64,000 nt of DNA from a virus, in IMG/VR virus record IMGVR_UViG_3300045988_177309, positions 32,170 through 96,169 of that record. One strand, 5' to 3'. The position numbers and the translations under genes are program-made. Position 1 is the stretch's first letter. Each line of letters starts with the position of its first letter. Shown here piece after piece: positions 18,393 to 38,535 of the stretch. Below the pieces are notes generated by a model. The model was not told where the DNA came from. It did not search any database and saw only the letters and a list, made by a program, of their open reading frames with translations.

Positions 18393-21300
18393 TGTTTAAT
18401 CCACTATTAAATGATGAATTTTTAAACAAATTATTTACTTATACTGAACGCGAAATTTTTGCGCGAATTATTTTGTTATCCTTTGACGAAACGCATTGTC
18501 TTGAAGAAATTCAGGGGCGAGTAACCGGGGGTACCATTAATATTAATGGTACCTCGGCGGTTCGCCGCACTTGTAATTTATCATTAGTTACTACAGATAT
18601 GGACATAAACGCCTTTCATTGGGGACTGCATACTAAATTTTCTTTATCTATTGGATTAAAGAATTTTATTGATACAGAAAATTTCCCTGAAATAGTTTGG
18701 TTTCCTGCTGGAGTTTATGTTATTACAGGGCTTTCTACAAGTCAAGCATTAAATAATTTTACCATGTCCATTCAAGGTCAAGATAAAATGTGCCTTTTAA
18801 ATGGTAGTATTGGCGGCACTATTGGATAGACTGTAAACTTTGGACAATTTGTTTATGATGATATTGAACTAAATAAAGAGGTTCGAGTTGATAGATTACT
18901 TAAAAGGATTATTTTTGATTTAGTTCATACTTATGGATTAGAACCAATTTAGAATATTTTAATTAATGATGTTGATAATAGTGGTATAGAGTTATTAGAA
19001 TATCGTGGTGATACTCCTTTATATTTATTTAAAAAATATTGGGATGGTTTGAGTTCTTAGGGTAATTATTATGAAAACATGAGTACTGATGGTTCTTAGA
19101 TTGTTTATGCAATTGATGAAGACTTTGAAGGTAATGAAGTTGAACGAGAAGTAAAATTAGAAGATTTTATTAAATATTATACTTTTGATACTCTTAATGA
19201 TAAAGAAATAAACATCCCAACCAAAGTGTATCTTTTAAATAAAGATATGGTTTAGCATGGTAAAGAGCGTGATAAATATATTATTGCACGTATTCAATAT
19301 GGCGAAACTGCGGGTTATCGTCCTACAGATTTAGTTTATCCTAATGATTTTATTTGTAATCCTGGAGAAAGTGTAACTGCACAATTAGATAAAATAGTTA
19401 AAGTGCTTGGTGATTATGAATATTATTATGATGTTTATGGTACTTTTATTTTTTAGAAGAAATAGACTTTTATTAATACTCCTTGGAATGGTACTGGTTC
19501 TAGTAATAATGAGACTTATTTTAGACAAACTGGATATGAGTCTTGTTATAAATTTTCTTTTGATAATGGAACTTTAATCACCTCTTTTAATAATTCTCCC
19601 AATATTGCGAATATGAAAAATGATTATTTTGTTCATGGTATTCGTCGAGGTGTGAGTGGTGGTGAAATTCCTATACATATGCGTTACGCTATAGCTAAAA
19701 AGCCTACGGAATATACTTCTATTGCAGTAAATGCTGAAGAAGCTAAAAAATATGGTAACAATAAATCTCAAGATCATCGTACTTACACAAATGAAGATTG
19801 GGATTGGCGTGAGATTATATATCAAATGGCGCATGATTTTTATTAGTACGGAACTATGGATGATTTTTTTGCACGAGTGCGGTAGGCTAATCGTATATAT
19901 CCAGAAGATAAAGATTTATTTCCTTTTGGCAGTACTGGGTATGAAATGTTTTATACTGATTTAATGAGTTATTGGCGTGAGTTATATGATCCTTATGCTG
20001 AAGTTACTTATGAATTTATGATTTCACCATTAACGAAAACACCTATTAAAGTTATTGATGATTTAACTCGTCCTATTTATGCTCCAATAGTAGATGAAAA
20101 TGGCATGATGAGTTATAATTATCTTGAAGTTAAAATTCCGCAAGATGAATTTGACGATAGAAAAATATTAGGCATTTATTATGAAGGTTTAGCTTTTGAT
20201 TAGTATAAAAATGAAAAAATTGCAGAATATTGGAAATCTGATAATTCAGAAGGTAATTGGTATTAGTGGTCAATGACTCATCCAATTGACTTTGGTACTA
20301 AATATTATGTTAAAACAGAAGATGGCAATTTTTCTGAGTTATATTTTTCTTATGTGCGAGATTATCAATAGGTTGGCAATTGCTATAAAGATAAAAAACA
20401 TTATTGTTAGTCTACAGGCTTTATTCATTTATTGCCTTATAAGCCCATGTGGCCAAATGCAGTAAAAATAACTCCTGAAATTATTGATAGAGCAACTTCA
20501 TTAGAACCTGAAGTAGGATATGAATCTCGTCGCATTAATTGTGCTGACGAAAAATATTCTACTTATGAAGTATAGACTGAATTAGATAATAAGGTTAAGA
20601 AAAAAATATTGTCCATGCAAGAAGCTGCATTTAATTTAGAATAGCGCTCTTATCAACTGGAAATATATAATACCTTTAGAAAGTCTGCAAAAGAAATTTG
20701 GAATAATTTTGTTTAGACTTATTGGTGTCGACCTTTTAGTGTCGAGGTATCTGAAGCTTTTGGATTTTTTGATGATAATTATGATAGTGATTGGTCTGAA
20801 GGTAATAAATTAGGCTATATTGAAAAAATAAAATATTTGTATCCTAATGAGCCGAATAAATTGGTTGAGATTACTAATAGTAATATGTTTGCGCTATGTT
20901 TACAATATGATAATGTTTATGTATAGCGTACTAATATGTATTTTACCAACTTAGATTATATAGATATTGATGAAGAAGAAAAAAAGATTGATAATATAAC
21001 TTTAGAGAATTTGGCTTCTGATTCTTCTTTTGAAAATAAAAGTTTTGCTTTAGAAGATTCTAGTATTATATATAATACAGATTTAAGTTTGAGTGGAAAT
21101 GTTTCACTAACAACTAAAAACGAGCAAACTTATAATGACTTTTTCTTTCCTCCGTCAAAAAATGTTATGATTATGCCAAATGTTGAGAAGCATGTTTTTT
21201 ATATTGCTTGTCATAGTCCAAATTTTGCATCGAGTGTAAAAATAACTTAGCTCATAAATGGTATATATTATAATTATGGGTCGGCAAATATTAATTATAA

Positions 21301-23227
21301 TATTAATAATACTTGGTATGGAAGGTATTTTAAAAAAGGGTGGTATCGACATTCAAAATTAATTACTGGATCTACAAGCTATGTAACTAAGTTTAACTTT
21401 GGAATAAGCGTAGATACACCAAGCATTATTTGCATAGATGATATAATATTAATCGATTTAACAGAATCTTTTGGAGCTGGTAATGAACCTACAAGAGAAT
21501 GGTGCGATGAAAACATTCCCTTTTTTGAAAATGAATATATTTTTCATAAAATAAATAAACAAACAAAAATTGCTTCAACTCATAAATATTATATTGCAAC
21601 ACATTCTTATGCTTCTGCCACAATATTTAGAATTTTATAGGGCTTATATGCAAATGTTATTTCAGATCATAGCAAGGGATGGTTTCCGCAATTTAAAGAA
21701 TCAGAAGATTAGTTCCGATATGCGAATATTTTTATTTTAAAAGATTATGATGCACTTAAATTTATAATTACTACTTTATCTGAAAATGTTGATGGTGCTA
21801 ATGGCTTAGTCGCACCTTTTGTTATGATAGATTTAACTCGTAAGTATGGGTCAGGTCAAGAGCCCAGTTTAGATTGGTGCAATCAAAATATTCCATTTGA
21901 TGAAAATATTTATATTTTTGCTGATGCAGAGGAAGAAGAAGAGCTTGAACCTTTATATTATTATGCATTAAATGGTACATATAATACTGAATATACAGAG
22001 TATATAGATGGTCGAGAAGTCCATTTTTCAAATACATACGGTTTCTTTGCGCCAGAAAATGATAATCCTGGGATTAGTTTAATTATTGATGATAGCAATT
22101 TACTTAATGCGAAGAAAACCCACAATTGTTATATCTATCAAGATGTAAATATAGATGACAAATTTTTAAGATTAACTGAAGATAGTGTGTATGATTCTAA
22201 GAAAATCTATTATGAAAAAACTGACCATTATATTGATGGATATCATCAAACTTTTTCTGAATATACCGATATTTATGAATACGATGCTGTTCTTAAAGAA
22301 TATCTTGCGGTTATGAGTAAAGGAGCGAATGGTTTATATTCTTTCAGAAAAGATAGGGTAATATCTCCCTATTATCGTTATCCAGAAGTAAATCATACTA
22401 ATCCAAAAGATGATGAGGTGTGGGGCAGAAAAGATATTATTTTCTGCAAAATTACTAAAGGATATTATCTTAAAGAATCTACTGCAACTTTATCAGGATA
22501 TGAAATTGTGCCGACTGAATATAGTATTTATAAAGCAATTAAAACCGCGGAAGATTATGCGGCATAGCAAGCTTTAAAAAATGTGTTTGTTCAAGATGGA
22601 ATTGAAGATATTGTAATTTATGAACCTAAGAAAAATCGTTCATATTATACTAAAACTTGCCAATATTATAAGCCTATTGACGGCGTTGATAAATCATTAT
22701 ATTATTGGAATAAAAATGTAGTTAATGCTCCTGAAGTGCTAAACTATTGGTTAGATTTCTTAGATGGCGATGATTTAGAGAAGTATTCTATTAATATAGT
22801 TGGAGATAGGCCTAAAGCAATTAATGATGATAAGGTAACAGCCATCTATTATAGAGAAACTCCTACGGTGATTTTTTTAACTGATAAAAATTAGTACGAT
22901 GAACTAAAAGCGCGAGGAGAGATAAGGGACGGTTATAGTTATATATATTTAAATACTGAATATGAGAATATGTTTAGTATTAGCGCACAAGGCAAAGATG
23001 CCCATGCAGTGATAGACAATATGGTGTATAATTATTCCTATTGTGTTGAGTCTGTAACTGTAAATGCAATACCTATATATACATTAGAACCTAATACTTA
23101 GATTTCAATCTATGATGAAACAAGTAAAATTAATGGTTTGTATAATATTCAAACCTTAACAATACCATTAACTCATAATGGATTAATGAATATAAAAGCA
23201 ACTAAAGTGGTTGATCGAATTTATTAA
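18392..23227 (+). CDS. giant virion structural protein (~1611 aa), baseplate/fibre module; TAG-recoded
   Basis: The ATG overlaps the previous stop (taATG). Frame 2 is continuous through pieces 18392, 19613, 19946, 20936, 21824 and 22583, separated only by TAG. TAA lies at 23225-23227. Confidence 0.7.
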
Positions 23228-23617: not shown

Positions 23618-26600
23618 ATGAGTTTTTATGGTAAAGTGGTAAATTTAGACCGCGCTCAATTCAATTTTGATAAAATATACTCTAGCCGCTATGAGATGGA
23701 TCATAACATTAAAACTGATGGTATTTATGTAAATCGTTTGGTATTGGTGGAATATGACTCTGAGGGTAGCGACGATAGTTTTAAATCTTGTTATTTAGCA
23801 CCTGATGGTAAATTATATGCAAGTTTTAAGCAAAAAGAGGGCGCAAGTATTCAAGAAGTACTTGATGGTGCAGTTGAATTTCCTGCAGCGTATAAGTTAG
23901 AAGTTGTATCAAGCTCAACGGTAAGTTTAAATTATTGTCAAGTACGACAAGGTGATGTAGTGCGCGTTCCGGCGACTGTTATTGATAAAAATGGTAAAAT
24001 TATTGAACGCTTTAATTATAATACTTTAGCTAGTTCGCATGAACCCATTGATATTGGTACTCTTAATGGTTCTGTAACTCTTTATTATTAGGCTAAATTG
24101 GTAAATGGTCAATCTGAATTTACTATTTTAACAAGTGCGAATTCTGCTTATGTGCGTAATTATGCTTTAGATACTTCTATTTATGGTAAAGGACGCGGTT
24201 GGGATTCAACTGTTTGGTAGAAGGTTTATAAAGATAATAAAGAACAATATATAATGATTGCAGAACTTAATTCCACGATGCCAGCATTTGGCATTTCTAC
24301 GGATGCGCCAAGTATCGTGCCTACAGCCCCACACTTTGATACTGATAGCACTAATAAATTTTATTAGTTACATTGGCAACCTTCATGGGGATTAAGAGTA
24401 AAAGGTGCCGAACAATTTACTGGTCCAGTACTTGATGAAAATGGTAATAAAAGTGAATTATTTACTAGTTCTACTATTTTAACTAATGATGTAAAAGATT
24501 ATCCTTCTGACGAAGAGACTTCTTGGTCTCAAATTAAGATGGATACTGAAAATAATACAAGTCAAAAACAATATTTTAATATAGAAACTAAATAGTGGCA
24601 AAATGCAGAAAGTAAGATACCAGCCGCAATTTATTATAATAAGGCGGGTTTCGATCCTGAACATATTTCTTATGCTAATGAAAATATAACAGATAAAATT
24701 TCTGTTGAGCCTACTGGATATAGTGGTCATTTATATAACCAACATGATGGTACTAATCGTTTAGCAGTAAGCGAAGATACTCAAGAAATTAGTATTATGT
24801 TGCCTTCTCTTGGCAATACATTAGCTCATGTTTGGGATTTGGTTTATGGCTCAGAAGAATAGAATGGTTCTTTGAATCGTAATCTTAATATAAATTGGGA
24901 CAATAAAGATGGTTTACGGCTTGTAAATGTTAATCCAGAAGGCAATGGATATACTTATGATACTGATAAAGTTAATACTCTTGCAGGATGTATTAATTCA
25001 GTACATGATTTAATGGGTATGATTATTGTTGCTAATAATGACAATCATATTGATTTACAAGATTTTAATAATATTGATTTAGATAAAATATATTATCAAA
25101 ATCAAAAATATTATCGTATTCGTAAGACTGATTTAGTAAAAAAATACAAAGAAGGATTACTTACAACAGTTGTTTCTATTGATGGTAAGTATAATTTTAA
25201 GCCTGATCGTAATTATTATATTGTTTATTTAGAGGATGGCTCAAATGCGCAATTTGATAAAGATTAGGCTACTTATATTAATCAGCATTTTAAAGTGGGC
25301 CAAAAGTGGAACATTGAAATTGCTGATGTAATAGATGGTATAATTCTTGCGCCAGATATTATTGATGTAAAAATTAGTGATTAGACTAGTTTATCATATG
25401 TTTTTGAACCTGATAAAAAATATTATATTGTTGATGTTGGTACAAGTGGGTTAACGATCGGTTCTGCTTGGCTCATTAGTGATACTAAGGTGCGGCAAGG
25501 AATTGAGCTTGCGGCGAACGTAGCTGAAGTTGTTGAAGTGTCGCGTTATAATATGGTCACTGGTACTCAATATCAGATTTCTGCTTTAGAAGATATAGAT
25601 GATCTTTTAGAAAAATATGTAATTGGTGATATTTGGACTGAGGGAGATAAGGTAGTTCCTGGAGTTACATTATCTCAATATGTTGCGGCGACCGATTAGA
25701 AATTATATTATGATATGCAAGATGGCATTGATTATTATATAGCTAAAGAAATTGGTAGTGGTACTAGTCTTACTGAAGAGAAAATTCAAGAGCTGCAAAC
25801 TAAATATGGTTCCATATATGAAAATCATGAAGTTTGGCCTTATGGAGCTGAATTTATTGATGGTATTGTTTTGGGCTATTATGAAGAAGGTAGTACTGAA
25901 TTAACACTTATTGGTTCTAGTTATAAGCGCGAATGGATATTCCGTGATGGTGTTATTTATCAAATTACTCAAGTCGAAAATAGTGCTGGTATGTCAAATG
26001 AAGATTATGAGAAGTTTAAAAAGCAATATCAAGTTGGTCAAGTTTGGGATACCACTAATAAAACTTATATAGAAGGTTTAACTCTTGCAACTCCTCCTAT
26101 TAATGCACTTAATAGAAATGAATATATTTTAGAAGAAAGCATTAATTATCAAGTTGTGGGCTATGACTTAACTGGACTAAGCACTGATGAGCAGACCTCG
26201 CTAAAAGCTAATTATCCTCTTGGTAAAGCTTGGACAAGTATTGTCGCAATACCTGGCTTATTGATTGGTGAAAGCCGTGCCGCAACTAAAGAAATGTATT
26301 ACTATGAGTTCATTGATGGTGTTAATTATTATATTGAAGGTATTGATAATTCTAAGACTTATGATTAGATCTATACTATTGGATAGAAATGGGACACAGA
26401 TTATAAAACTGTTGTTGACGGTTTATCAATAATCGGCTAGTAGATGGGTTATGAATTTAGTGAATTGGTTGGTTTTGCTGATGGGTTAAATACTATTCAT
26501 GGATTAATTCTTAAATTAAATAGTTTATTAGAGATTGATAATGAAACGTCTCGTGACAATAAAACAGTTTAGGGTTGTATTAATTTGATGAATGATATTT

Positions 26601-28000
26601 TAAATACATTCGATACTCTTATTCCTAAATCATTATTAACAGTTGATTAGTTTGGTAAAATAATTAGTGCTAAGATTAATACTGATTAGACAAATAGTAT
26701 TAATTTTACTAAGGAACCCCCTAAAATAAATTGTTTTAGCAAAGACAGTGATGATATTATTAATAAAGATATTTATAAGTATGAACACAGTGACCCTGTT
26801 ATGATTGATAAGCAATGGATTACTGTTAATATTAACAATGATAAAAATAATAATATTCTAAGCATTCATCATAATTATCATAAACTTGAAGATATTAAAC
26901 CTTCATTAGAAAACAATCCTAATGCTTATGATCTTTATAATATGACTTATACTGATGATAAGTATAATGGAAGTATTTTATTGCGCGATTATCTTATTGA
27001 TGAAACTGGGCATGTTGTTGGTAAACAAAATAAGATTGCGCCGCTACCCACTCATTTTAAAGATATAATAATTAATAATTTAAATTATTAGCCTTACTTT
27101 AGCAGAATGCTTGAACTTTCTTATCAAGGTGCAATATTTAATCTTGATAATCCAAAAGTGATAGAAAATAAAGATGCTTTACTTGCAGCTTGGCTTGAAG
27201 AAAAAAATAGTGGTAATCTTACTGATACTGAATATAATTTATACCTGCGATGGATAGCTGAGTTTGAAAATAGTGTAACCGCACGAGGTGATAGCAATCC
27301 TTATGAAACTAGTCATCCGCGCGATATATTTACGGCAATTCCTGAGAATAGTATAATTTACAGTGCGCCAATTGCTGCTGAAGTGCCAGTGCGTGGCAGT
27401 ATGACCTTCGGTGGTTTACTTAAAACTACTTCAACATAGAAACCTTTAGAAATAACTTCAGTTAATAAATGGATTCAATTAAGGGGTGTATTTGTTCCTG
27501 TTGGAGGTAAGCGCGAACCGCACTATTATAATGAATTACTTTCTTTTGGAGCAACATTCACTGAAGGCACTTTAGAATTGACTAATGCAGCCGAATTAAT
27601 TTCTAAAGCAAATGCTTTGGCAGGTCCTGAAAAAACAATGTGGTTAAGTCGTATTCAAGAATATCAAAGCGATTGGACGTTACCACGTACTGTTAATGAC
27701 CAATTATAGGTTGCACATAAAATTTCTGTAGTTGATACAAGTGATAAGCCCAATACAGAAGAGCCTGTGTTGTATGATATAGAATATGATGAAGCTGGTC
27801 ATATCATTGGAAAGCATAAGTATACTAAAGGCATAAGTGCTGATGTTGGTTCAAGCACGGTTAAAGGTTATGCTAATGAAATTACCCATAGTATTATTGA
27901 GCCTACAGGCGAAGCTACTTTAAATAATTATATTAAACGTTTATGGAATAAAATAAATAGTTTAGAACAAAGAATTGCTGTTTTAGAAAGTAATACTTAA
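23618..28000 (+). CDS. giant fibre-like structural protein (~1460 aa) with a C-terminal coiled coil; TAG-recoded
   Basis: Frame 2 is continuous through pieces 23618, 24872, 25490, 25715, 26801, 27107 and 27767. It contains a tandem TAG TAG at 26438-26443. The C-terminus reads ...IKRLWNKINSLEQRIAVLESNT, and the gene ends with TAA at 27998-28000. Confidence 0.7.
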
Positions 28001-28105: not shown

Positions 28106-28834
28106 TTGACTCAGTATGTAAAATTCTTGCGCGGTCTATATGATAATTATGCCAAGTTGGCAGTAAAAGATAAGGACACTTTATATTTTACTACTGCGGC
28201 AGCCGACTCTCAAACCGGTCGTTTGTTCTTAGGTGATATTGAAATTACTGGTTCTACCAGCTCTGGTGGTGTGGTCCCCAGTGAAATTTCTCTTGGTGAA
28301 TTAGGTAATATTAATCTTTCTGAAACTCTTGGCACTAATGATGTTCTAGTTTATGATTCAACAAGCGAAAAATGGGTAAATAAGCCTATATCTGACCTTG
28401 TTAAAATCGAAACAATGATTGGTGCTAAGTCTGATACGGCTGGTAAAGCTGGCTATGTTCCTGCTCCTGCTGCAGGTGACCAGACTAAGTTTCTGCGCGG
28501 TGATGGCACTTGGGTAACTGTTGATGTTGGTGAAATCGACGGTATATTAGACACTCTTGAAGAACGTTTAACTACTATGAATACTACTGTCGGCAATTTG
28601 CAAGATACAGTTAACAAAATTCAAGAACATCCTACACTAGAGCTAAACACTCGCGTAAAGGCTCTTGAAGATATTATCAATGATACTACAACTGGTGAAG
28701 GCGAAGGATAGGTAACTACTCTCGGTCTCAAGAGTGTTGTATCTAATTTAAAAATTTCTGTAGAAGACCACGAAACTCGTATTACTACTATAGAAACCGC
28801 TTTACAGTGGGCCGATATTCTTGCTGGTGAATAA
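28106..28834 (+). CDS. fibre-type protein (~242 aa) with the conserved fibre N-terminal domain; 1 in-frame TAG
   Basis: TTG start after the ribosome-binding site AAAGGAGTG. N-terminus is MTQYVKFLRGLYDNYAKL...TLYFTT...GRLFLGD. TAG at 28709; TAA at 28832-28834. Confidence 0.6.
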
Positions 28835-28860: not shown

Positions 28861-30864
28861 ATGGCTAATGTTGGATTTTTAAGGGGTTCTCAGGCTAATT
28901 TAAATACCTTGATGACCGGTAAAACTGGTATCAAAGAGGGCTCTTTCTATTTAACTAATGATACTAATCGTTTATACTTTGGTAAATCCGCTACTGAGCT
29001 TGTTGCTCTTAATGAGGGTGTAATAACTGTTGCGGCTATAGCCGATTTGCCTTCGGGTGCCGATCTTTCTAATGAAATCGGTCACTTTTATTATGCTACT
29101 GCTGAAAATATTCTTTGTGTTTATAATGGTAGCCAATGGGTACAAATTAATCCTGATACTGATACTCAGGTTTCTTCTGTAAATACTGCTGTTGTTGTGG
29201 CTGAAAACGCTGCGACTGCAACCACAACTCTTAAGTTTTCTCGTGATGGTAAAGATCTTGATGCTGCTGAAAACAAGTCTGCTACTTTGAAGTTTGTTGG
29301 TGCCGACCTTGTTTTGACTGCCAATGGTGCTGATGGTATTAAGCTGACTGGCGATACCTATTCAATCGGTTCCAGTGCTATTGCTGGTGGTGTAGCGATT
29401 GATTTAAATCGTGATAATGCTGCAGATACCACTCGCAAAGGTAAAATTGGTTCAGTCAATTTAAAGGCTGGTAATGCAATTAAGTTAGTGCGTGACACTA
29501 ATGGTGATATTACTGTTAATGCTACTACTGAAGTTGGTTCTGTTGAATCCACTACTTTTACGGTTTCTCAAACTGGTCAAGTTGCTACTATTGAAAGCGC
29601 AGTTAAAGATAGTCTTTCAACTGATCCTGTAAAGGATAGTTTCAAGCTTGCTGCTGATGGTAATGATATTAGCCTGAGCACTGATACTGAGACCAAAACT
29701 GTTAAAATTAAGGGTAGTCACTTCTCTTTAAGTGGTGAAACCAAGGAAACTGATAATACTGCCAAGATCACTTTAAAATCTGACCTTACAGGCAGTGCCA
29801 GTTCTGATTTTAGCATTGCTGGTGGTGATAATGTAACCGTTACTCAGAATGGTTCTGCAATTAGCATTACTGCAATCGATACAACCTTAGATAGCGTTGC
29901 TGTTGATGCTCAGGCTGCAGGTTATAAGGTAACTGTTAAGGACACTACTACAACTGATGGTGTAACTACTACTTTTGATCCTAAGATTCAACTTGCTGGT
30001 GGTGAATCTGTTTCTTTCGTAAATGGTATCGCTACTATCCCCACTAAGGTTATTGATGATAAGATTACTGCCGCCAAGCAGAGTATGGATGCCATGGTAT
30101 TCAAGGGAGTTGCTACCGCCGTTCCTACTGGCACTCAAGAGATTGGCTGGACTTATAAAGCTACTGGCGACTTCACCATTCCTGCTGGCAGTGTTGAGGG
30201 TAGTACGGCTGCAGCCAATGTAAAGACTGGTGACTTAATCGTTGCTACTGGTATTGAAGTCGGTGGCGTTATTACAAGTAACTTAAAGTGGTATGTTGTC
30301 CCCTCTGGTGATGAAGAAAATACTACTTATAGTTTTGCTCGTGTTGAAGACGGTGGTAAAGTTGGTATTAAACTTGCTCCCGATGGTATGGCCGCTAATG
30401 TTGTTGGTCAGATGACCGTTGAAGCTGGCGATAATATTGCTATTGCTGCTAATAATGCTGATGAGGATGGTAAATATCAGAATGTAAAAATTAGCCATGG
30501 TGCGGTTGGTACTGCTGTTGCAGCTCCTACTGCTACTAAGGTTAGCCAAAAAGTTGATGAGGCTCTTGTCATTACTGCTCATGAAGTAGCTTATGATAAA
30601 TATGGTCATATCACTGGCGTAACTGCTAAAGAATATACTCTGAAAGATACCGATACTCATAATGATATCGATACTTTTGCTGTTGCAGCTTCTGAAAACG
30701 GCCAGGGCGTCGTACATTCTGTAAAAACTAAAGACAATACTAACGCTATGACCGCTCAGGTTAATTATGTTGCGGCCACCGATAATCAAAATATATCCAT
30801 TAAGACCACTTCTGTTGCTGGTGTTGCTACTGTAACATTTGATCTGGTTTGGGGTACGTTTTAA
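28861..30864 (+). CDS. tail fibre / appendage protein, 667 aa, contains no TAG codon
   Basis: Intact ORF with ribosome-binding site AAAAGGAGAT. It has the same N-terminal FLRG...LYFG domain as 28106. The body is rich in Thr/Ala/Gly/Val repeats. It is noticeably GC-richer than its neighbours. Confidence 0.75.
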   Translation: MANVGFLRGSQANLNTLMTGKTGIKEGSFYLTNDTNRLYFGKSATELVALNEGVITVAAIADLPSGADLSNEIGHFYYATAENILCVYNGSQWVQINPDTDTQVSSVNTAVVVAENAATATTTLKFSRDGKDLDAAENKSATLKFVGADLVLTANGADGIKLTGDTYSIGSSAIAGGVAIDLNRDNAADTTRKGKIGSVNLKAGNAIKLVRDTNGDITVNATTEVGSVESTTFTVSQTGQVATIESAVKDSLSTDPVKDSFKLAADGNDISLSTDTETKTVKIKGSHFSLSGETKETDNTAKITLKSDLTGSASSDFSIAGGDNVTVTQNGSAISITAIDTTLDSVAVDAQAAGYKVTVKDTTTTDGVTTTFDPKIQLAGGESVSFVNGIATIPTKVIDDKITAAKQSMDAMVFKGVATAVPTGTQEIGWTYKATGDFTIPAGSVEGSTAAANVKTGDLIVATGIEVGGVITSNLKWYVVPSGDEENTTYSFARVEDGGKVGIKLAPDGMAANVVGQMTVEAGDNIAIAANNADEDGKYQNVKISHGAVGTAVAAPTATKVSQKVDEALVITAHEVAYDKYGHITGVTAKEYTLKDTDTHNDIDTFAVAASENGQGVVHSVKTKDNTNAMTAQVNYVAATDNQNISIKTTSVAGVATVTFDLVWGTF

Positions 30865-30931: not shown

Positions 30932-30967
30932 AGGGAAAGGGGCTTTTGTTCCTTTCCCCTTTTTTTA
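30932..30967 (+). terminator. rho-independent terminator
   Basis: Stem agggaaagg / cctttccct followed by TTTTTTT. Confidence 0.65.
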
Positions 30968-31005
30968 TTATGTTACGAAATGATAGAAAGGAGTTAAAAA
31001 ATATA

Positions 31006-34000
31006 ATGGCAACTGCATTTAGACCCGTCCGCACAACTAAAGATAGGCTAAATATTGAAAAATATAATGAAGGCTATATTTATATGGTAAAAGATAGCGG
31101 CCAAATTTTTATGGATGCTGATGGGAAACGTATATTATTAGGTAATAATGGTGTGTCATTATTTTATGGTACTGACGAAAAACCAGTAGAAGATCCAGAT
31201 TTAGAAACTGGTTATATTTTAGTATTAAGTAAAATAGAAAATTATGAAAATTGCCATGAAGGTGATTTAATTTTAAATAAAAACGATGGTGCTTTTTATC
31301 AAATATTAACTATTGATGAACCAAATGATTAGATATATTGTGCGCGTTTATCTATAAGTGGCGGTGGTGGAGGCAGTGGAGATAATCCTGGCGGTGGCCG
31401 CAATATGACTTTTAAAGTTGAAGGTTTAACACACTCTACTGTTATTAATGGTACAGAAGTTTCCACTTATGTGACTGCGACCGCAAAACAAGATGCCAAT
31501 GGTGATTATGAAGATGATGTTTTAACCATTAATTGGGCTTTATATGAAGGCATTAAAGATGAAGGCACTCCTTATATGCGCGGTACATTTGAAGTTAATA
31601 ATGGCGAAAGGACACAATTTGAATTTGGTAAACGATTAAAAGCTAATACCACGAGTTCATTGTGGATGACCGCTTCCGGTGTTAATAGTGGTATTTCTAT
31701 AAAACGTAATATTCAAGTTACGACTGTTGATTTGATTCTTAGCCGCAGTTCCAAATTTTCACCTTTAACTTTATATAGTTCTACGGTTAAACCTATTATG
31801 TATTGTAACGTGTCTGGCGCAATTACTAAACAATTATTATTTTATGTAGATAATGAATTGGTAAATGAGCAGATATTAGATTATAATAATAATGGTGAAA
31901 AATCTTATACAATAAATACCGCAACATTAGAGCATGGCACTCATATAGCTCGTTTTGAATTATATTCTTATGAAAATAACAAACAAGGTGCTGGCCCAGA
32001 ACCTATTGAATTTGAATTTGCTTATAATAGTGGCTCAAATAATTTGCCAATTATTTGGATTGGTTCTTATAAGAATGAATACTATAATTATGATAAAATT
32101 CAAATTCCTTTCTTGGCTTATGATCCAAAAGTTCCAACCAATACAATTGTTAATTTTTATAAAGATGCAAAAATACTTGAATCTAAACAGTAGGTAATAA
32201 ATTTTACTTCTACTTCAGAATATAAAATTTTTGAAATTACTGATGTTACTACCGATGAAGAAAATCTTTACTATATTTCTTGTGGTGAAGGCGAACGTGA
32301 AGTGCGCCGCGAAATCGCATTTAACGTAAAGACTGATCCTAATCGTGATATGAACATCATTGCTGAAAACTTAATGCTTTCATTTGACGCAACTGGCCGC
32401 TCAAACAGTGAGTCGGCCGCAAATCGTGAAAAATGGCAGTATAACGATTATAAAGCAACTTTTGAAAACTTTAACTGGTATAATAATGGTTGGCTCCTAG
32501 ATGAAAATAATAACACTTGTTTACGTATAAGTAATGGGGCGAAGTTTTCAATTCCTATTGGCCCAATGACATTAAATTCTAATGTTAGTGGTATTAAAAA
32601 ATGTACCTTTGAATTTCAATTTAAAGTTAAGAATATTAGTAATTATAATAAATTAATTAAAGAAATTACTCGTTATTCTGACGACTAGGCTGCTTATGAT
32701 GCATTTCTTGCACAAGATAAGTATGATAATTATGATGCCTTCTTACATGATAAAGCATTAGAACTGTTAGGCAAAGAATATGATGATTTAGTCTTTAGTC
32801 AAGTTTATAAATAGATATCCACGGCAAATGCATTTTGTAAGTACATTACTGGCACTACTGGATTGTGTTTAGGACCATAGGGTGCTTTTTTTAGTGACGG
32901 TACTGATACTGTTAATGTGGCCTATGTTGAAAATTAGTTAGTTAATTTAAGTATTGTATTCTCTCCTAATTCTAATTTAATTTTAATTTATATTAATGGT
33001 GTTTTAACGGGGGTTAATAAGATTACAGTGGACAGTGCAGTTAATATCACAAGTTCAGCTATTGAATTTAATTCAAGCAATTGTGATATTGATTTATATA
33101 AAGTGCGTGTTTACTCTGAAAGCTTAGATCTATTAAATATTTTAAAGAATTATGCCGTTGATTTTAAGGATGTTTTAATTTATGATCAAAATAGCATTGC
33201 TTCTCTTGACACTAGTGTTGGTAATGAGCCTAGACTGCGCTATGAAGACATGATTCTTTATAATCAGACTCATCCTGATGATTATTTAATGCCTTATTTG
33301 ATTTTTGATGTAACTAATACTTCGTTGAAGAATATGCCTTATAAAAAAGCAGTTAAGGTTAATGGTGCAACCATTACTTTTGTTAATACTGGTTTAGATA
33401 GGGCTTATGAAAATGGCGAGTTACTTACTAAAATTAAAGAGGATAAAGAAATCGCTGGCATTCTTGCTGAATAGGGTGAAATTGCGGCAATTGAAGAATA
33501 TTATAAACATCATTGTCCAAGCTTCACTTCTACTGCCTATGAAGATTTAAATAATACTGGCGTAACGCTTTAGGTTCAAGGCACTTCTTCTGAATTCTAT
33601 CCTCGTCGCAATTATAAAATAAAAACTAAGGGTTCAGATAAGAATATCAATATGTATATGAATGCTGGGCCTTTTAAAAGTGCTTATAAAAATAAAGAAG
33701 ATAAGTGCCATCTTGATGCATTCTATTATGATAACTATACGGTAGGTACTACTAAATTTACTGTAAAGATTGATTATATGGAATCTTCCGGTACTTATAA
33801 TATGGGTATGGCTAATTTTGTTGCTAATGCCTATACAAAACATCCTATTAATGATTATAATAGTGTTGGCGCTTTTACTGAATCAAAAGAAAATTATGAA
33901 GTTGCAACCTCTTATGATGAAAACGCCACCTATTATGAACTAAATGAGGCTGGTAAATATAAGAAATTAACCGATCAAACTATTGTAAATGCTGAAAATG

Positions 34001-37000
34001 TTGGTAATTATTATATTGCAGTTACCACTTATAAAGCATATGATTGGCCGAATATAAAAGATTATCGCACCAGTGTACAAGGTTTTCCCGTATTAGGTTT
34101 CTGCAAAAATGGAGAAACCTATACATTTTTAGGTCGCTTCAATCTACTTTTGGATAAAGGTTCAGATGAAGCTTATGGATTTAAACCCAGTGAAAAAATA
34201 AGCCAAAAATTTTTAGGTAATAAAGCCGTACGTAAAATGACTGAGTGCTGGGAATTCTCAGATAATGGCCGCACATTCTGCTCATTCAGAGATCCTTTAA
34301 AGCGTAAAGAATTCAGTTTTAGTATGACTCAAGATGAAATGCGTCGCGCTGGAATGAATACTGAAGGCCTTGTGTTTAATGGCAATGAGCGCGCAAACTC
34401 TAAGGGTTGTGGCCCAATAGTAACGGATAGCTACGAATATCGTTATCATACTGATTCTGATCTTTTGGATTATATTTATGATATAACTGGTGGCGGTGTA
34501 ACTACTGAAGATTTGGCTGATGGTGGTTATGCTCCCGAAGAATATTCTACTCCTGAGAATAGAAATGCCTCTTTGTTTAAGAAGATGAAAAACTGGGAAC
34601 GTGCTTGTAAATGGGTTTGGAGTACTTGTGTTGATTATGTTGGTAAAGAAGACGATTTAATTAATAAGTATGCGATAAAACAATATGGCAAAAATGCTAC
34701 ATTCGTTCATACTAAAAAATATTCTGCGGCAAAAATTCCTACTGTTGAAGAGACAATTTTATTTAATCCAACAGAAGTAACAATGGCTTATGATAACGTT
34801 AAGAATAATTTAATTCAAGCCGGATTAACTGAAGATATTTTAAAGAGCGCTGAATGGGGTACTGTTGATGGCACTGATAGTAGCGGCAATATTATTTATA
34901 CATTTTCTGATAGTGATGTATTCCGCGCTTATGCTAAAATTACTGGTTATGTTTATGTACAAGATCTTGATAAAGTTGGTACTTATTAGACTGGTACAGT
35001 TGAAGCTTATACCAATGTATTTAATACAATTAAACAAACTCCTGAAGATTATGCAACTGATAATATTGAAGTTCTTAATCCCGCAGTTACCATTAATAGC
35101 GTTACTCATTATTTTGATACTCAAGAATATCGTTTAGCCAAATTTAAGAAAGAGCTTCCTGAACACTTCGATTTAGAATATTGCTTAGTGTATTTCTTAA
35201 TTACAGAAATTTTCCTTTGCTATGATAGTCGTGGAAAGAACTGTATGATGGCGTCCTGGGGTCCGCAAAAAGAAGGTGGCGATTATATTTGGTATCCTAT
35301 TTTTTATGATATGGATACGCAGTTGGGTATTAATAATACTGGTATTCCTTCTTTCGAGTATTATGTAAATGCCCAAGAAGAAGGTTGTTTCTCTACTAAT
35401 GATAGCGTATTATGGGCAAATCTTTATACTTGTTTTAAAGATGCTTTAAAAGCTAAGTATTTCCAGATGCGCGGGGATGGTAGTGGTATTATAAACATTA
35501 ATACTAAAAAAGCTACCACTCCTTTGCTTGGTTCTTCTACTGGCGATAATGACACTCGTTCGGCATTGCAGCGTGATGTTGACCATATTGAAAAATGGTA
35601 TTTAGCTGACCCTGACGAATGTGACTCTATTGCGATGAGAGGTATTCGTCCTTTAATGGCTTTAAATTTAGATGAGTATTGGAAGTATATTTCTATTACT
35701 AATGCCGCAGGTGATGGTTATCAAAATCAAGATGGCGATAAAGCGATTGATGGCGATGGCACTTATTTCTATGCTTTGCAGGGCGACCGCAGTTTATCAC
35801 GTTAGCAATTCTTAATGAATCGTATTAATTTTTATGATTCAGTCCAAGGCTGGGGCGAATATGCGCGTGCAGGTACCTCAATACAAGGTCGTATTATTGC
35901 TAATGATATAAATCAAACTTCTGATAAATATATTGATAATAATACTACTACATTACCAGATGGATTTGTATATTCACCATATTATGTTATGGAAAATGGT
36001 GTTGAAAAGAAAGATGCCAATGGCAATCCTATTAAAACCAATTATTTAGATGCCGATTTGGCAGTCAAAATAATTCCTTATCAACGTCAATATGTTACTA
36101 TTGGCGGTGATAATAGTTCAATGGAACCGTAGTTATATAAGGGCGATAAAGCTGTTTATATGCAACTTCCTGGTAATATGCCTATTGGACGTCGTAGCGG
36201 TGCTAAATATGGCGAACAATTGTTTTATATTTATGGCGCGAGCTTCTTACAAGATATTGGTGATATGAGTACTCTTTATTGGCGTGAATTCAAAGCATTA
36301 GGTGCGTCACGTTTATAGAGATTATTACTTGGTTCAGAATATCCTGGATATTTCTTAAAGACTAATCCGCCCAGTTTTGATGCTTCCAAGAATAGCGCAA
36401 AAGGTAAGCCAATGTTAAAAGAAGTAAATCTTACTGGTGTATTTATTGAAAATGTGCAAACATTAGACTTCTCCAGTAGTGAAAAATTACAATCTTTCCG
36501 CGCAGTACGTTCTAATATTTAGAATATTGTATTCGCGGAAGGGGTTGCACTTAACACTTTACATATACCTAAAACATTAACAAATCTTAATTTAGTTGAA
36601 GCTTCGCAATTGAAAGGTTTGGTTACTTCTTATGAAGCACCTACAGAAGAGAATTTCTCTACTTGGACTCCTCCTGTAGGATTATATATTGAAGATTTAA
36701 CTAATAATTTAGATACTGCGACTGAAACTGGTTTGAATGTGTTAAGCATTAATGGTGATTACTTTGGTTATGATAGTTATAAATTATTAAAAGCTTTAAC
36801 TCGTATTAAGCTTTAGCCAAACCAAGGACAGCTTTAGATATCATTGCGTGGTGTAAATTGGATGCCTTATGAAAAATTAACAGAAGGTTATACTTATAAT
36901 GCTTCTGAAGAATATTATAAGGATAATGGTCACTATGGTTTAGACGCTTGGACTTGGGATGCCGCAGAATGGGATAGTTTGCTTATTGATGGTAAATTAT

Positions 37001-38535
37001 TCAAGAAAGTTATCAATAAGTATGAATCTATTGTTGACATAAACATGTTAAAGGATTATATTGAAAAATATAGCTCTATTTTTAAGGGTACGGCTACCGC
37101 AATGCCTGAGATTACTGGTTATATCTATATTGAAAATAGTGATATAATTGATGAAGGCTATATCCGCAATACTTTATAGAACAATAATTATTATCCTAAC
37201 CTTAATTTCTTCTTTAAGAATGTAAAGCCCGGTTATTCTGGCACATTTTTATAGATAGATGAAGATGGTAAGAAAAATGTTGTTGGTATATAGAAGATTG
37301 CTGCGGATGATTTTGAATCTAATACTATTGTACGATTCTCTAATCCTTATACTATTTATACTCCAAAACCAAAGCCAAACTATGACTTCCTTGGTTGGGC
37401 AACTGATGCCGCAGGTGAAAATATAATTACTAATGAAGCTTGGGAAGAATGGTCTTGTACACAAGGTGTTATGGATTATACCTTCTATGCTATTTATATT
37501 AAACATAAATATAAGATGTTTTTCTATAATGATGATGATACATTAATTGATGAGATAGAGGTTACTTACAATGAGAAGCTTTATCCTCCTACGATCGTTC
37601 CTCATAAAGATGAATCAACATTGCCATTAGAAAGCACTTATAAACATGTTGGTTATTCGACTAGTAAGGGCGGTCGTAAAGTTGATTTAGAGTCTATGCG
37701 CTCAATCAAAGATTATAAGTTCTATGCGGTTTATGAAATTGCTAATGTTTATGATGCTCCATTTGATGAAAAATTCTTTGATTTCACTTCTGGAACATAT
37801 CATGAACAAAGTGGTTACTATATTAGTGTTAAATCTGGGTATTCATTATCTGGTAAAGTAACATTGCCAACTCGTTATAATAATCAACCTGTTATTGGTA
37901 TATTGGGAGCTTCAAGTCAATCAGACAGTAGTTTTGTTAATGGCTTTAGAAATAATAATGATATTACTCATATTTTCTGGTATAAAGACTCTGCTGGAAT
38001 GAATATAATTGATTTTGCAATGCGCTGTTTTGAAGGAATGGGTTCATTACAATATATTGAAATTCCTGGCACTATAGAGCGCTTTGGAGCTTATTGTATG
38101 GCTTCAATCCGTAAGAATAATGAGGTTAATGTACCAGTATTAAAGTTAAATCGTATTGATATTAATCCTGATAAGATTTGTCGTTTTGATGCTTATGCAT
38201 TTAGTGGTTCGCCAGTTGATAATGAATCATTTACAATTACAGGCCGCTTTGATTTTATTGGTAATCAGGCATTTGCTTATCAAACAAAAATATCAACTTT
38301 TAATTTCGGTGATGCAGAAAAAGGCTGTTATATTACTAGTATGCGTAGCAGCAATTAGTATTATCAGGTACTTCGTTAGAATCCTTCTGATCGTACTATT
38401 ACAACAGTAAATATGTATTCTGACCAAGAAAATATTAACAAATATAGTGCGCCTGAATCTGACGACTATCTGCCCAATCTTACTGGTCTTACTACTGCTA
38501 GTGTTAATGTTACTTATAATTATACAGTTATATAA
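31006..38535 (+). CDS. giant multi-domain fibre/adhesin-like protein (~2509 aa) with a C-terminal BspA-type leucine-rich-repeat region; TAG-recoded
   Basis: The ATG at 31006 follows the ribosome-binding site GAAAGGAG. Frame 1 is continuous through 11 ORF-track pieces (30946 to 37471), separated only by TAG. TAA lies at 38533-38535. The N-terminus shares the fibre N-domain. The C-terminal ~300 aa carry a repeating I.IP..V..IG..AF pattern like LRR_5/BspA. Confidence 0.7.

Follow-up and report, generated by a model that had tools for sequence, protein, structure and literature searches.

Absence of the reassigned stop codon TAG from a fibre-like gene of a recoded gut phage: association with the codon usage of probable capsid and tail-tube genes

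Introduction

Why should a virion gene contain no TAG when its neighbours on both sides read TAG as an amino acid? The question is raised by a gene of 667 codons in a 64-kb stretch of phage DNA (the window), which lies within a string of giant virion genes rich in this codon. Uneven usage of a reassigned stop codon among phage genes is an established phenomenon, and the present case is a nuance of it. In code-15 gut phages (crAss-like, Agate and other clades), recoded codons occur chiefly in late genes for structure and lysis and are avoided in integrases, a distribution viewed as a switch of timing or of lysogeny (Borges et al., bioRxiv 10.1101/2021.08.26.457843). The features considered here are listed in Table 1.

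Table 1. Features of the window and, where indicated, of a close relative.
Feature	Coordinates (strand)	Length	TAG usage	Other properties
Tape-measure-like giant gene	1136..10477 (+)	3113 codons	45 TAG, share 0.25	
Giant virion ORF	10600..14703 (+)	1367 codons	18 TAG, share 0.37	
Giant virion ORF	15093..18392 (+)	1099 codons	13 TAG, share 0.38	TAG-TAA tandem end
Giant virion ORF	18392..23227 (+)	1611 codons	23 TAG, share 0.46	Top share among large genes
Giant virion ORF	23618..28000 (+)	1460 codons	18 TAG, share 0.30	
Upstream gene	28106..28834 (+)	242 codons	1 TAG / 7 Gln codons	TTG start, Shine-Dalgarno, GC 0.394
667-codon gene	28861..30864 (+)	667 codons	0 TAG, 8 CAA, 9 CAG	ATG to TAA
Intrinsic-terminator-like hairpin and T-run	30933..30968 (+)			11 bp stem, 6 GC pairs, ~70 nt past stop of 667-codon gene
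Giant virion ORF	31006..38535 (+)	2509 codons	20 TAG, share 0.26	Directly downstream of 667-codon gene
Ig-domain (Hoc-like) virion gene	38832..40646 (+)		3 TAG / 19 Gln codons	
Holin	46846..47244 (+)		0 TAG / 8 Gln codons	phrog_13712, E=1e-30
Membrane protein	48116..48913 (+)	265 codons	1 TAG, 5 CAA, 7 CAG	GC3 0.33, capsid/tube-type codons
RuvC-like resolvase	50727..51224 (-)		5 TAG / 12 Gln codons	
GIY-YIG endonuclease ORF	55356..56060 (-)		0 TAG / 13 Gln codons (12 CAA)	In nrdD insertion, AT-rich codons
Guanylate kinase (gmk)	57220..57810 (-)		0 TAG / 4 Gln codons	
DnaE-type DNA polymerase III alpha	57797..61657 (-)	1286 codons		Single gene
Dda/RecD-like helicase	62695..63822 (-)		0 TAG / 15 Gln codons	
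YonB-like gene (relative)		369 aa	1 TAG, 4 CAA, 7 CAG	GC 0.42, GC3 0.34
YomU tail tube (relative)		332 aa	0 TAG, 3 CAA, 5 CAG	GC3 0.33
Head gene (relative)		254 aa	0 TAG, 3 CAA, 7 CAG	
Neighbouring gene (relative)		432 aa	15 TAG, 11 CAA, 1 CAG, share 0.56	GC 0.28

Results

TAG is a glutamine codon in the window

When TAG was read as a sense codon, the ORF total of the window reached 73 kb, compared with 47 kb otherwise, and fused ORFs of 3148, 2535, 1618, 1461, 1388 and 1114 codons appeared; the same read-through test with TGA gave no ORF gain. Genes of the window gene set end with TAA (39) or TGA (6) and none needs TAG as a terminator, the sole seeming TAG end being an internal codon of dnaE. 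This codon (60464-60466), the one in-frame TAG of a gene that has 53 other Gln codons and encodes PHP, DNA_pol3_alpha, finger and HHH_6 domains, lies in the conserved motif GL-Q-YWRFLN, and a relative with 99.5% identity has CAG at this place. The TAG of NrdG aligned opposite the Q of the FFQGC motif of the PFL-activase. In comparison with three relatives, Q was the residue most frequently aligned with TAG, and in codon alignments of four genomes the TAG columns swap nearly exclusively with CAA or CAG. In conclusion, TAG is a sense codon for Gln in the window (code 15).

The window belongs to a TAG->Gln recoded siphovirus-type gut phage of the SPbeta / phAss-1-related group. In ~97% identical relatives, the genes just upstream of the window form the SPbeta-type set YonD, YonB, YomW, YomV, YomU and YomO (precomputed Pfam matches), which is followed by the tape measure, whose orthologue has a precomputed PhageMin_Tail match; homologues of the capsid gene are present in phAss-1 and in Enterococcus, Bacillus and Brevibacillus phages. 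The capsid and tube genes used below come from the 10 kb that precede the window, as read from a ~97% identical relative. The tRNA search found none in the 64-kb window or in flanking loci, hence no suppressor tRNA (CUA) there; a degenerate pattern of the phAss-1 Sup tRNA had no match in the contig of a close relative and matched two other IMG/VR contigs. Neither a tRNA-Gln(CUG) nor a release-factor gene was found for the window phage in the regions searched.

TAG usage differs between modules and between genes

Virion genes contain 176 TAG in 16,076 codons, that is 1 per 91, with a range of 1 per 69 to 1 per 125 in the giant ORFs, which is sparser than the 1 per 30-50 codons first estimated from this DNA. 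Replication genes contain about 4 TAG per 1000 codons. Expressed as a share of Gln codons, TAG amounts to 27.8% in virion genes vs 9.6% in replication genes (OR 3.6, p=2e-7); the general picture of a TAG-rich virion module and a TAG-poor replication module, as originally proposed, is thus right and matches the model of Borges et al. TAG usage was heterogeneous over all genes (G=117.9, permutation p=2e-4), and modestly so inside the virion module (p=0.024).

The genes for the GIY-YIG endonuclease, Dda, Gmk and the holin are TAG-free, as had been noticed, and so is a 177-aa gene that precedes the tape measure. Most of the listed TAG-free genes have too few Gln codons for significance when taken singly: the probability of zero TAG was 0.07 for the holin (0/8), 0.27 for gmk (0/4) and 0.05 for the 177-aa gene (0/9). 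Replication genes had been described as carrying 0-1 TAG each except RuvC; the count of five for RuvC stands, but four TAG were found in 61830-62618 and three in 50144-50644. A virion-like TAG share was thus observed on the replication arm for RuvC and two further genes. In-frame TAG codons are present in DnaE (1), NrdD (2), NrdG (1), dUTPase (1) and RuvC (5), and early genes are not wholly readable in the standard code here. DnaE, dda, gmk and NrdD all lack TAG in a near-identical relative. Group I intron models gave no Rfam match on the nrdD insertions, even at E<=1.

The 667-codon gene is borderline when the window is considered alone

The gene at 28861-30864 was confirmed as TAG-free and GC-richer than its surroundings (GC 0.406, compared with ~0.32 for the window; GC3 0.247). 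Its product is a beta-rich, fibre-like virion protein and a candidate tail fibre or receptor-binding protein, for which the comparison class is that of phage fibre and tailspike proteins with an N-terminal domain of the Mtd / DUF2793 / HylP type. The hairpin that follows it is the best terminator-like site between 22 and 41.5 kb. A hairpin (-16 to -28 kcal/mol) with a T-run was found 68-113 nt past the stop of the homologue in 38/38 relative loci, and the stem sequences vary between lineages. A transcription unit would end at this conserved predicted terminator, which would be compatible with a separately dosed transcript. The 242-codon gene upstream has a codon class near the capsid/tube type; a common N-terminal anchor of the 242-aa and 667-aa proteins was considered and rejected, as the similarity at the FLRG...YFT motif was not significant (E=0.28).

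The probability of finding zero TAG in the 667-codon gene was 5e-4 under a per-codon null and 0.0033 when conditioned on its 17 Gln codons (family-wise 0.013). It was 0.053, with 2.9 TAG expected, when calculated from the positional composition of the gene itself (T1=0.12, A2=0.30); the gene is therefore borderline from the window alone. The original prediction had set TAG-free genes against chance expectation given length and composition: for this gene chance is disfavoured per codon and per Gln codon, and the result is borderline by composition. Of the G-ending Gln codons, TAG makes up 0/9 in this gene vs 76% elsewhere in the module (P=3e-6, a post hoc comparison). The orthologue in a close relative (L006, 93-94% identical) carries three in-frame TAG codons derived from CAG, and the idea that the gene is obligatorily TAG-free was rejected for this reason.

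The gene shares its codon usage with probable capsid and tail-tube genes

The YonB-like 369-aa gene sits at the expected capsid position and has a weak, sub-threshold NCBIfam match to an HK97-fold major capsid protein (E=2e-4); from this match, its Pfam name YonB and gene order, it probably encodes the major capsid protein. The tube gene is labelled just 'virion structural protein' in PHROGs. On the identity of capsid and tube, PDB sequence searches returned no matches and the literature on YonB/YomU was not informative.

Each gene was given a codon-class score, the log-likelihood ratio of its synonymous codons, Gln left out, under the usage of capsid, tube and 254-aa genes vs that of the giant ORFs, with leave-one-out. 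The 667-codon gene ranked 4th of 56, right behind the three reference genes, with a score of 0.10 compared with 0.20-0.32 for capsid/tube and about -0.3 for giant ORFs. Six genes only have a positive score: the probable major capsid, tail tube, 254-aa head, 667-aa, 242-aa and 265-aa membrane genes. This small class has a raised GC3, prefers AAG, GAG, CTG/CTC/CTT, TTC, CCC and TCC, encodes Gln as CAG and avoids TAG. Its six members use TAG for 3 of their 67 Gln codons, vs 152/480 in the giant ORFs (Fisher p=4e-7). The giant tail/baseplate ORFs have AT-rich codons and 25-55% of their Gln codons as TAG, and the replication genes encode Gln as CAA, with ordinary AT-rich codon usage and low GC3.

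Inside the late module the relation between codon class and TAG share is a correlation: Spearman -0.74 (p=1e-6) for virion genes, and -0.65 (p=0.001) for the non-reference genes. A logistic model fitted without the 667-codon gene predicts for it a TAG share of 9.6%, i.e. 1.6 TAG, and P(0)=0.18. Since this gene resembles the probable genes for capsid and tail tube in codon usage, we favour the view that its lack of TAG is a matter of codon bias and not of foreign origin or early expression; it would probably be a codon-class effect, due to selection against TAG in abundant late proteins.

Some observations lie outside the codon-class rule. The Hoc-like family is TAG-poor with just a mild codon shift, and is TAG-poor across recoded lineages too. 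The tape-measure-like gene contains a TAG-free stretch of 575 codons (7295-9019) with CAA-type usage.

TAG depletion recurs in other recoded lineages

In 9/10 recoded lineages, the family of the 667-codon gene has a TAG share below that of its flanks (Mantel-Haenszel OR 0.34, p=1e-5; without the window lineage, OR 0.39, p=1.6e-4); these statistics handle the 10 lineages as independent and ignore kinship. The homologues of the other recoded lineages carry 1-7 TAG. The extent of depletion follows the GC3 excess of the homologue over its flanks (rho -0.84, p=0.002). No depletion was observed in L018, where the homologue has 7/19 Gln codons as TAG vs 0.35 in the flanks.

A similar distribution was observed in phAss-1. 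The capsid homologue of the window clade is 50.6% identical to that of phAss-1, both phages encode a DnaE-type polymerase and a class III RNR, and the phAss-1 group is monophyletic and includes recoded and standard-code members together. phAss-1 is nevertheless a separate genus-level lineage, with a GC content of 44.5% vs ~32% in the window clade and a genome of 136 kb vs contigs of ~160-175 kb; megablast of window positions 28-40 kb gave no nucleotide match to phAss-1, and tblastn detected no homologue of the 667-aa gene there. The phAss-1 paper reports TAG in TerL and the tape measure, and the capsid protein and DnaE are not among the recoded genes that it lists. The annotation of the phAss-1 record describes every product as 'hypothetical protein'. 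In our own count on OQ749652.1 the same dichotomy of TAG-rich and TAG-free genes was found: the capsid homologue has 0 TAG, 0 CAA and 15 CAG (GC3 0.58), and the 3150-aa tape-measure-like gene has 110 TAG for 249 Gln codons (share 0.44). TAG share in phAss-1 was negatively correlated with the G-ending share of Lys/Glu codons (rho -0.69, p=0.0015). Its tRNA array comprises three Sup(CTA), Gln(CTG), Lys(CTT), Glu(CTC), Leu(CAG), Pro(GGG) and Ser(GGA).

These results bear on chance as an explanation, namely that a gene poor in Gln and in T-first/A-second codons would lack TAG by composition. The small number of Gln codons, the compositional probability, the family-wise value of 0.013 together with the modest heterogeneity of the virion module, and the three TAG of the close orthologue all agree with it. 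The depletion nevertheless recurs in other lineages with the window set aside, it is tied to a codon class scored on other amino acids, and G-ending Gln codons in the gene are never TAG, so that we regard chance as unlikely.

TAG in the giant genes does not exceed a simple neutral expectation

The inverse relation of TAG share to codon class could also arise from the opposite side, if selection raised TAG in the giant, low-copy genes for tail and baseplate so as to cut their output, abundant genes being left alone. Such a throttle predicts the same relation, and the top TAG shares are indeed those of very large or low-copy genes (the 432-aa gene, 0.56; the 1611-codon ORF, 0.46; the phAss-1 tape-measure-like gene, 0.44). 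By a simple mutational argument, however, AT pressure would move CAG to CAA or to TAG, and the change of CAA to TAA would be lethal, so that a neutral level of TAG would be about that of CAA. The giant ORFs have 152 TAG vs 290 CAA, at or under the neutral level, and positive selection for TAG is therefore unnecessary. We consider a throttle of this type quite improbable.

Timing of expression

It had been suggested that TAG-free genes, the 667-codon gene included, are expressed before or independently of TAG suppression, like replication genes. The gene is translatable under the standard code, a predicted terminator of its own lies downstream, a gap of 100 nt precedes the 242-aa gene, and there is a precedent in integrases, which are needed in the standard-code state and avoid TAG in a family-specific manner (Borges et al., 10.1101/2021.08.26.457843). 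Several observations oppose this suggestion. The gene is part of the late virion string and is flanked by TAG-rich virion genes of the same strand; its close orthologue and the other recoded homologues contain TAG; and its Gln and general codons are like those of capsid and tube genes (CAG, high GC3), unlike those of replication genes (CAA, low GC3). Furthermore, an early role is not obvious for a lone fibre-like protein, and DnaE, NrdD, NrdG, dUTPase and RuvC themselves require TAG read-through. Early or suppression-independent expression is thus a very unlikely cause of the lack of TAG.

The 667-codon gene is a resident of the phage group

A homologue of the 667-codon gene was found at the same position in several metagenome contigs as well as in 40 IMG/VR loci, and most loci with a homologue in the conserved position use the standard code. 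The conserved order is the homologue, a ~2500-aa gene and a ~69-aa gene, the ORF 31006..38535 being the conserved neighbour in all relatives. In three close relatives, nucleotide identity was 0.85/0.92/0.91 for the gene vs 0.86/0.94/0.95 for the next gene; in distant relatives, the amino acid identity of the protein was 41/31/30%, level with its neighbours or lower. The divergence of the gene equals or exceeds that of its neighbours, and slow evolution was rejected as a cause of the few TAG. Neither megablast of 28-40 kb nor tblastn of the 667-aa protein found a match among 50,697 phage records.

Its composition is not that of a foreign gene: the GC of the homologue is above that of the flanks at every locus, standard-code loci included, and its synonymous codons are like those of the probable capsid and tube. 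Judged from synteny and from pairwise divergence compared with the flanks, the 667-codon gene is a vertically inherited, syntenic virion gene.

The other proposal of the original prediction, a recent horizontal acquisition of the fibre gene from a standard-code source (to which exchange of a cassette with standard-code relatives of the phage group may be added), could draw on the higher GC of the gene, on its CAG codons where neighbours carry TAG, on the existence of donors, since the standard code is that of many syntenic relatives, on TAG usage that is patchy even within the tape-measure gene, and on real mosaicism, as the nrdD allele differs sharply among near-identical relatives, but it is countered by a gene order kept in all relatives, by co-divergence with the flanks at close and distant range, by the family-wide GC excess, by a codon usage common to the gene and to resident core genes and by the lack of a match among cultured-phage records, and is the least probable of the explanations considered.

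Discussion

We propose that two factors act on TAG share. The first would be module or timing, with replication genes that use CAA and almost no TAG, which is the known pattern; the second would be the codon-usage class among late virion genes. The class to which the 667-codon gene belongs may reflect a high demand for the protein, as suggested by the company that the gene keeps. TAG would be selected against in high-demand genes because its decoding by a suppressor tRNA would compete with release factor 1 and lower the yield, and CAG would be readable by an ordinary tRNA-Gln(CUG), which the phage itself may encode.

The finding reveals no new system. Expression-linked codon bias, to which Borges et al. 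refer in their discussion, exists in T4-like phages with tRNA arrays, where abundant late proteins use distinct synonymous codons. The present case is similar in that, in the relative phAss-1, many preferred codons have a phage-encoded cognate tRNA, and it differs in that the bias extends to the use of a reassigned stop in place of a canonical Gln codon.

The comparison of TAG with CAA/CAG per family is the approach of Borges et al., and the window phage shares with their phages a sense TAG, relatives that include standard-code phages, a TAG-rich virion module beside a replication module that is nearly compatible with the standard code, a low GC content and the lack of a TAG terminator. It departs from their model in that the holin is without TAG, that several replication genes contain TAG and that the gradient inside the late module tracks codon class, the capsid, tube and 667-aa genes being TAG-poor. 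The part of their text that was accessible does not describe a capsid or codon-class gradient and does not mention the capsid.

A more speculative extension, which we find doubtful, is that the reassigned stop acts beyond an early/late switch as a graded dosage dial, purged from high-copy genes and tolerated or exploited in giant low-copy proteins. Capsid, tube and other high-copy proteins would then use CAG via a phage tRNA-Gln(CUG), and TAG in giant low-copy tail and baseplate proteins would help to set virion stoichiometry. If this were true, the TAG share of each gene would be a proxy of protein demand, obtained from sequence only, in uncultured recoded phages.

In any case, a gene of a recoded phage that is rich in GC and lacks TAG need not be foreign or early; here it belongs to the capsid/tube codon class. 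The inverse relation between TAG share and codon class in the late module of the window phage, its relatives and phAss-1 suggests that TAG decoding has a cost that is visible to selection. Such a cost bears on the completeness of the code switch during infection.

TAG is a glutamine codon of the phage

Read in the standard code, the + strand breaks into fragments, which join into ORFs of 3148, 2535, 1618, 1461, 1388 and 1114 codons when TAG is taken as sense; reading TGA as sense gave no comparable ORF gain in the window. Terminators were TAA (39) or TGA (6), and no gene required TAG as a stop. In three relatives, the residue most often opposite TAG was Q, at about the frequency with which CAA and CAG codons align to Q, and in a codon alignment of the window with three relatives (85–96% identical) TAG columns alternated almost exclusively with CAA or CAG. 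The TAG of NrdG aligned with the Q of the FFQGC radical-SAM motif (pyruvate formate-lyase activase). These comparisons identify TAG as a glutamine codon in this phage. A 1099-codon ORF closes with TAG-TAA, apparently an ancestral stop at TAG that is read as sense today, translation ending at the TAA after it.

The window has a GC content of about 32% and Shine-Dalgarno motifs at gene starts; tRNA genes were looked for in the 64 kb and none was found. The + strand encodes the genes of the first 50.1 kb or so and the - strand the remainder, and the junction of these convergent modules coincides with a change of GC skew from positive to negative. Rfam group I and group II intron models did not match the two nrdD insertions, even at E<=1. 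The near-identical relatives L052 and L054 hold an uninterrupted NrdD of 649 aa, only 30–42% identical to that of the window, which indicates that the nrdD allele was swapped.

For the genes immediately upstream of the window, sequences of relatives with about 97% identity were used. Precomputed Pfam annotation matches them to the SPbeta families YonD, YonB, YomW, YomV, YomU (tube) and YomO. The YonB-like protein shares 50.6% identity with a protein of phAss-1, a TAG-recoded gut phage, and 42% with proteins of Enterococcus phages EF1, EF5 and VRE9. These matches place the phage, by sequence, in the phAss-1 group, which contains both recoded and standard-code members (PMC10607447).

Features of the window and of the genes upstream of it (codon counts are TAG/CAA/CAG)
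Feature	Position	Strand	Description
YonB-like 369-aa gene	upstream of window		1/4/7; GC 0.423; GC3 0.339
254-aa gene	upstream of window		0/3/7; GC 0.413
YomU tail tube gene	upstream of window		0/3/5; GC 0.416; GC3 0.331
432-aa gene	2-427 (partial; complete in related locus L050:8638-9936)	+	15/11/1; GC 0.281, in contrast to its neighbours
Tape-measure-like gene	1136-10477	+	3113 codons
TAG-free stretch of tape-measure-like gene	7295-9019	+	575 codons, 31 Gln; 0/26/5
TAG-TAA end of 1099-codon ORF	18387-18392	+	
242-aa gene	28106-28834		
667-codon gene	28861-30864	+	0/8/9; GC 0.406; GC3 0.247
Terminator-like hairpin and T-run	30933-30968	+	after the 667-codon gene
Five further giant ORFs, Ig-domain (Hoc-like) protein, smaller virion genes, holin		+	
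123-codon gene	47456-47827	+	6 TAG among 13 Gln codons
265-aa membrane protein	48116-48913		
Replication-arm gene	50144-50644		3 TAG among 6 Gln codons
NrdD	53357-57136	-	three reading-frame pieces, split by two insertions
106-aa ORF	54443-54763	-	within one nrdD insertion
GIY-YIG endonuclease ORF	55356-56060	-	within the other nrdD insertion
DnaE-type polymerase	57797-61657	-	
In-frame TAG of DnaE	60464-60466	-	
Replication-arm gene	61830-62618		4 TAG among 9 Gln codons
RuvC-like resolvase, dUTPase, NrdG, guanylate kinase, Dda-like helicase		-	

Distribution of TAG among modules and genes

On the virion side, 16,076 codons include 176 TAG, i.e. 1 per 91, and the giant ORFs (1099–3113 codons) have 1 per 69 to 1 per 125; the density of one per 30–50 codons in the original prediction was too high. 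On the replication side 16–17 TAG were counted in about 4,210 codons. Expressed as TAG share, the fraction of glutamine codons (TAG, CAA and CAG) written TAG, the two sides differ significantly (27.8% versus 9.6%, OR 3.6, p=2e-7). The genes previously listed as TAG-free are so by codon count; the holin (0/8), gmk (0/4) and a 177-aa gene (0/9) have too few glutamine codons to be informative alone. Four genes are depleted, each taken singly, relative to the virion share: DnaE (1/54, P=5e-7), NrdD (2/31), dda (0/15) and the GIY-YIG gene (0/13). The RuvC-like gene (5/12) is not the sole exception in the replication arm, as two other genes there are also virion-like in TAG share (see table).

Could the absence of TAG from the 667-codon gene be due to chance? 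The answer varies with the null model. A uniform per-codon null predicts 7.6 TAG (P=5e-4); given the 17 glutamine codons of the gene, P is 0.0033 (0.013 family-wise, by permutation); and its own positional base composition (T1 0.12, A2 0.30) predicts 2.9 TAG (P=0.053). Taken alone, the gene is thus only marginally within chance expectation.

TAG is also patchy inside a single gene: the tape-measure-like gene has 45 TAG outside its TAG-free stretch (permutation p=0.003), which could be a differently constrained domain or a recombined segment. The highest TAG density in the window, 49 per 1000 codons, was that of the 123-codon gene, which has no family match and directly follows the holin; it recalls the published preference of recoding for lysis-cassette genes, although the holin itself has no TAG. 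The highest TAG share (15 of 27) was observed in the 432-aa gene, which has the tail-tube gene on one side and, on the other, the 177-aa YomO-like gene that comes before the tape measure.

TAG depletion in relatives of the 667-codon gene

A search with the protein returned 361 relatives in three sets: proteins 85–100% identical and always of 666–668 aa, proteins 30–42% identical over their full length, and proteins of about 530 aa with the N-terminal part in common. DNA from 40 IMG/VR loci and from several metagenome contigs was examined, and in each the homologue precedes a gene of about 2200–2600 aa, after which comes a gene of about 69 aa. The standard code applies in the majority of these phages, and about ten separate lineages are TAG-recoded. 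In nine of ten recoded lineages the homologue had a lower TAG share than its flanks (22 TAG observed, 47 expected; Mantel-Haenszel OR 0.34, p=1e-5; without the window, OR 0.39, p=1.6e-4); therefore, TAG depletion is a quantitative trait of this gene family. Homologues in other lineages have 1, 4, 7, 1, 7, 1 and 1 TAG, and the orthologue of the close relative L006, in the same clade as the window (93–94% identity), has three. These three sites face glutamine in other clade members: two are CAG in all three relatives, and the third is variously CAA, AAG or CAG. In the Hoc-like family, TAG is no commoner than in this one. The set of genes that have taken up TAG varies among recoded lineages: in one (L020–L022), the gene of about 2230 aa after the homologue has no TAG among 67 glutamine codons, against 5/37 and 5/34 in the giant genes upstream.

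The gene belongs to the codon-usage class of the probable capsid and tube genes

Three genes that lie no more than 10 kb upstream of the window share the signature of the 667-codon gene: the YonB-like, YomU and 254-aa genes. The YonB-like protein has a weak NCBIfam match to the HK97-fold major capsid protein (E=2e-4), and its gene follows a YonD-like gene, possibly the portal, and the 254-aa gene, a location that suits a capsid gene. A codon-class score was calculated from synonymous-codon tables of these three genes versus the giant ORFs, with glutamine left out and leave-one-out. The 667-codon gene ranked fourth of 56, directly behind the three reference genes; only two others, encoding the 265-aa membrane protein and the 242-aa protein, scored positive. 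It shares the preferred codons of the class (AAG, GAG, CTG/CTC/CTT, TTC, CCC, TCC, AGC, TGC, CAC, TAC), with an AAG share of 0.51, compared with 0.23 in giant ORFs and 0.75 in reference genes.

Among virion genes, TAG share decreased with the score (Spearman -0.74, p=1e-6, n=32; non-reference genes, -0.65, p=0.001). When the 667-codon gene was withheld from the fit, a logistic model predicted for it a TAG share of 9.6%, i.e. 1.6 TAG, with P(0)=0.18. TAG share also dropped as CAG share grew (window alone, rho -0.80, p=0.001), and in recoded lineages the depletion of the homologue followed its GC3 excess over the flanks (rho -0.84, p=0.002). This class, with the probable capsid and tube genes among its members, writes glutamine as CAG and not as TAG.

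Phage phAss-1 provided an independent replicate as a complete genome (OQ749652.1). Its capsid homologue has 0 TAG, 0 CAA and 15 CAG (GC3 0.58), and four other codon-biased virion-side genes also lack TAG, whereas its 3150-aa tape-measure-like gene has 110 TAG among 249 glutamine codons. TAG share correlated inversely with the G-ending share of Lys and Glu codons (rho -0.69, p=0.0015); the relation between class and TAG thus holds across genes, lineages and another recoded genome. Phage phAss-1 encodes about 36 tRNAs (L060, i.e. OQ749652.1 96.6–114.6 kb, and L064:11353-11518), including three Sup(CTA) suppressors, two of which adjoin nrdD, C34 tRNAs for favoured G-ending codons (Gln-CTG, Lys-CTT, Glu-CTC, Leu-CAG), and Pro-GGG, Ser-GGA and Phe-GAA. 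The codons served by these C34 tRNAs (CAG, AAG, GAG, CTG) are those preferred by its TAG-free capsid-class genes.

The gene is neither early nor foreign

Expression of the 667-codon gene early, or independently of suppression, had been proposed from its lack of TAG. This does not hold: the gene lies inside the late string, and natural orthologues tolerate TAG. TAG-poor replication genes write CAA and ordinary AT-rich codons (DnaE, 44 CAA/9 CAG; GIY-YIG gene, 12/1) and score -0.26 to -0.64, whereas the 667-codon gene scores positive and uses CAG; there are therefore two kinds of TAG-poor gene, and it is not of the early kind. Moreover, TAG must also be read through to make DnaE, NrdD, NrdG, dUTPase and RuvC. 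The single in-frame TAG of DnaE lies within a conserved GL-Q-YWRFLN motif, and the standard code splits the protein into 397 and 849 aa. This codon is CAG in the 99.5% identical L052, hence a recent CAG to TAG change, and the TAG form occurs again in another sample (L053/L063); the change leaves the polymerase dependent on suppression.

Recent acquisition from a standard-code source, the other proposed explanation, is made unlikely by four observations. First, gene order around the homologue is universal among loci. Second, nucleotide identities to three close relatives (0.847/0.920/0.907) resemble those of the next gene (0.861/0.936/0.953) and of the previous giant ORF (0.877/0.945/0.905), and amino acid identities to distant relatives are 41/31/30%, where the next gene has 55/34/31%. 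The 667-codon gene has thus kept pace in divergence with its surroundings and does not evolve slowly. Third, the homologue exceeds its flanks in GC by 0.01–0.09 in every locus, all standard-code loci included, so that the excess belongs to the protein family (Ala-, Gly-, Thr- and Val-rich). Fourth, its synonymous codon usage is common to resident core genes. In conclusion, this is a vertically inherited virion gene. Sequence-family searches with the protein, and Foldseek with its AlphaFold model, gave no match; the model (29-sequence alignment, pLDDT 69, pTM 0.26) is nearly all beta and elongated, making a fibre-like protein a reasonable but unproven assignment.

Proposed mechanism and relation to known recoding

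The codon class may reflect high protein demand. Suppressor decoding would compete with release factor 1, each TAG lowering the yield, so TAG would be selected against in high-demand genes, and CAG would be decoded by an ordinary tRNA, possibly one supplied by the phage. By a simple mutational argument, AT pressure would convert CAG to CAA or TAG, and CAA to TAA would be lethal; the neutral TAG frequency should therefore approach that of CAA. The most TAG-rich genes are close to this (the 432-aa gene; a 1611-codon ORF, 23 TAG/26 CAA). The 667-codon gene has no TAG despite nine CAG, the largest proportion of CAG substrate, which points to selection within it.

A strong hairpin with a T-run was found 68–113 nt past the stop of the homologue in 38 of 38 relative loci, recoded and standard-code (L001–L042 without L003, L009 and L040), with stem sequences that vary between lineages. 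The gene thus appears to end a conserved transcription unit midway through the tail genes; this predicted end is compatible with separate dosing of the gene, without proving it.

Borges et al. (bioRxiv 10.1101/2021.08.26.457843) described how the reassigned codon is unevenly used, late genes being recoded and replication genes mostly keeping to the standard code, and such unevenness was also noted in the phAss-1 group (PMC10607447). The phage is a further case of this known pattern. We found no prior statement in the literature examined that TAG share falls with the capsid/tube codon class inside the late module; this gradient, modest and correlational, is the only nuance that appears new.
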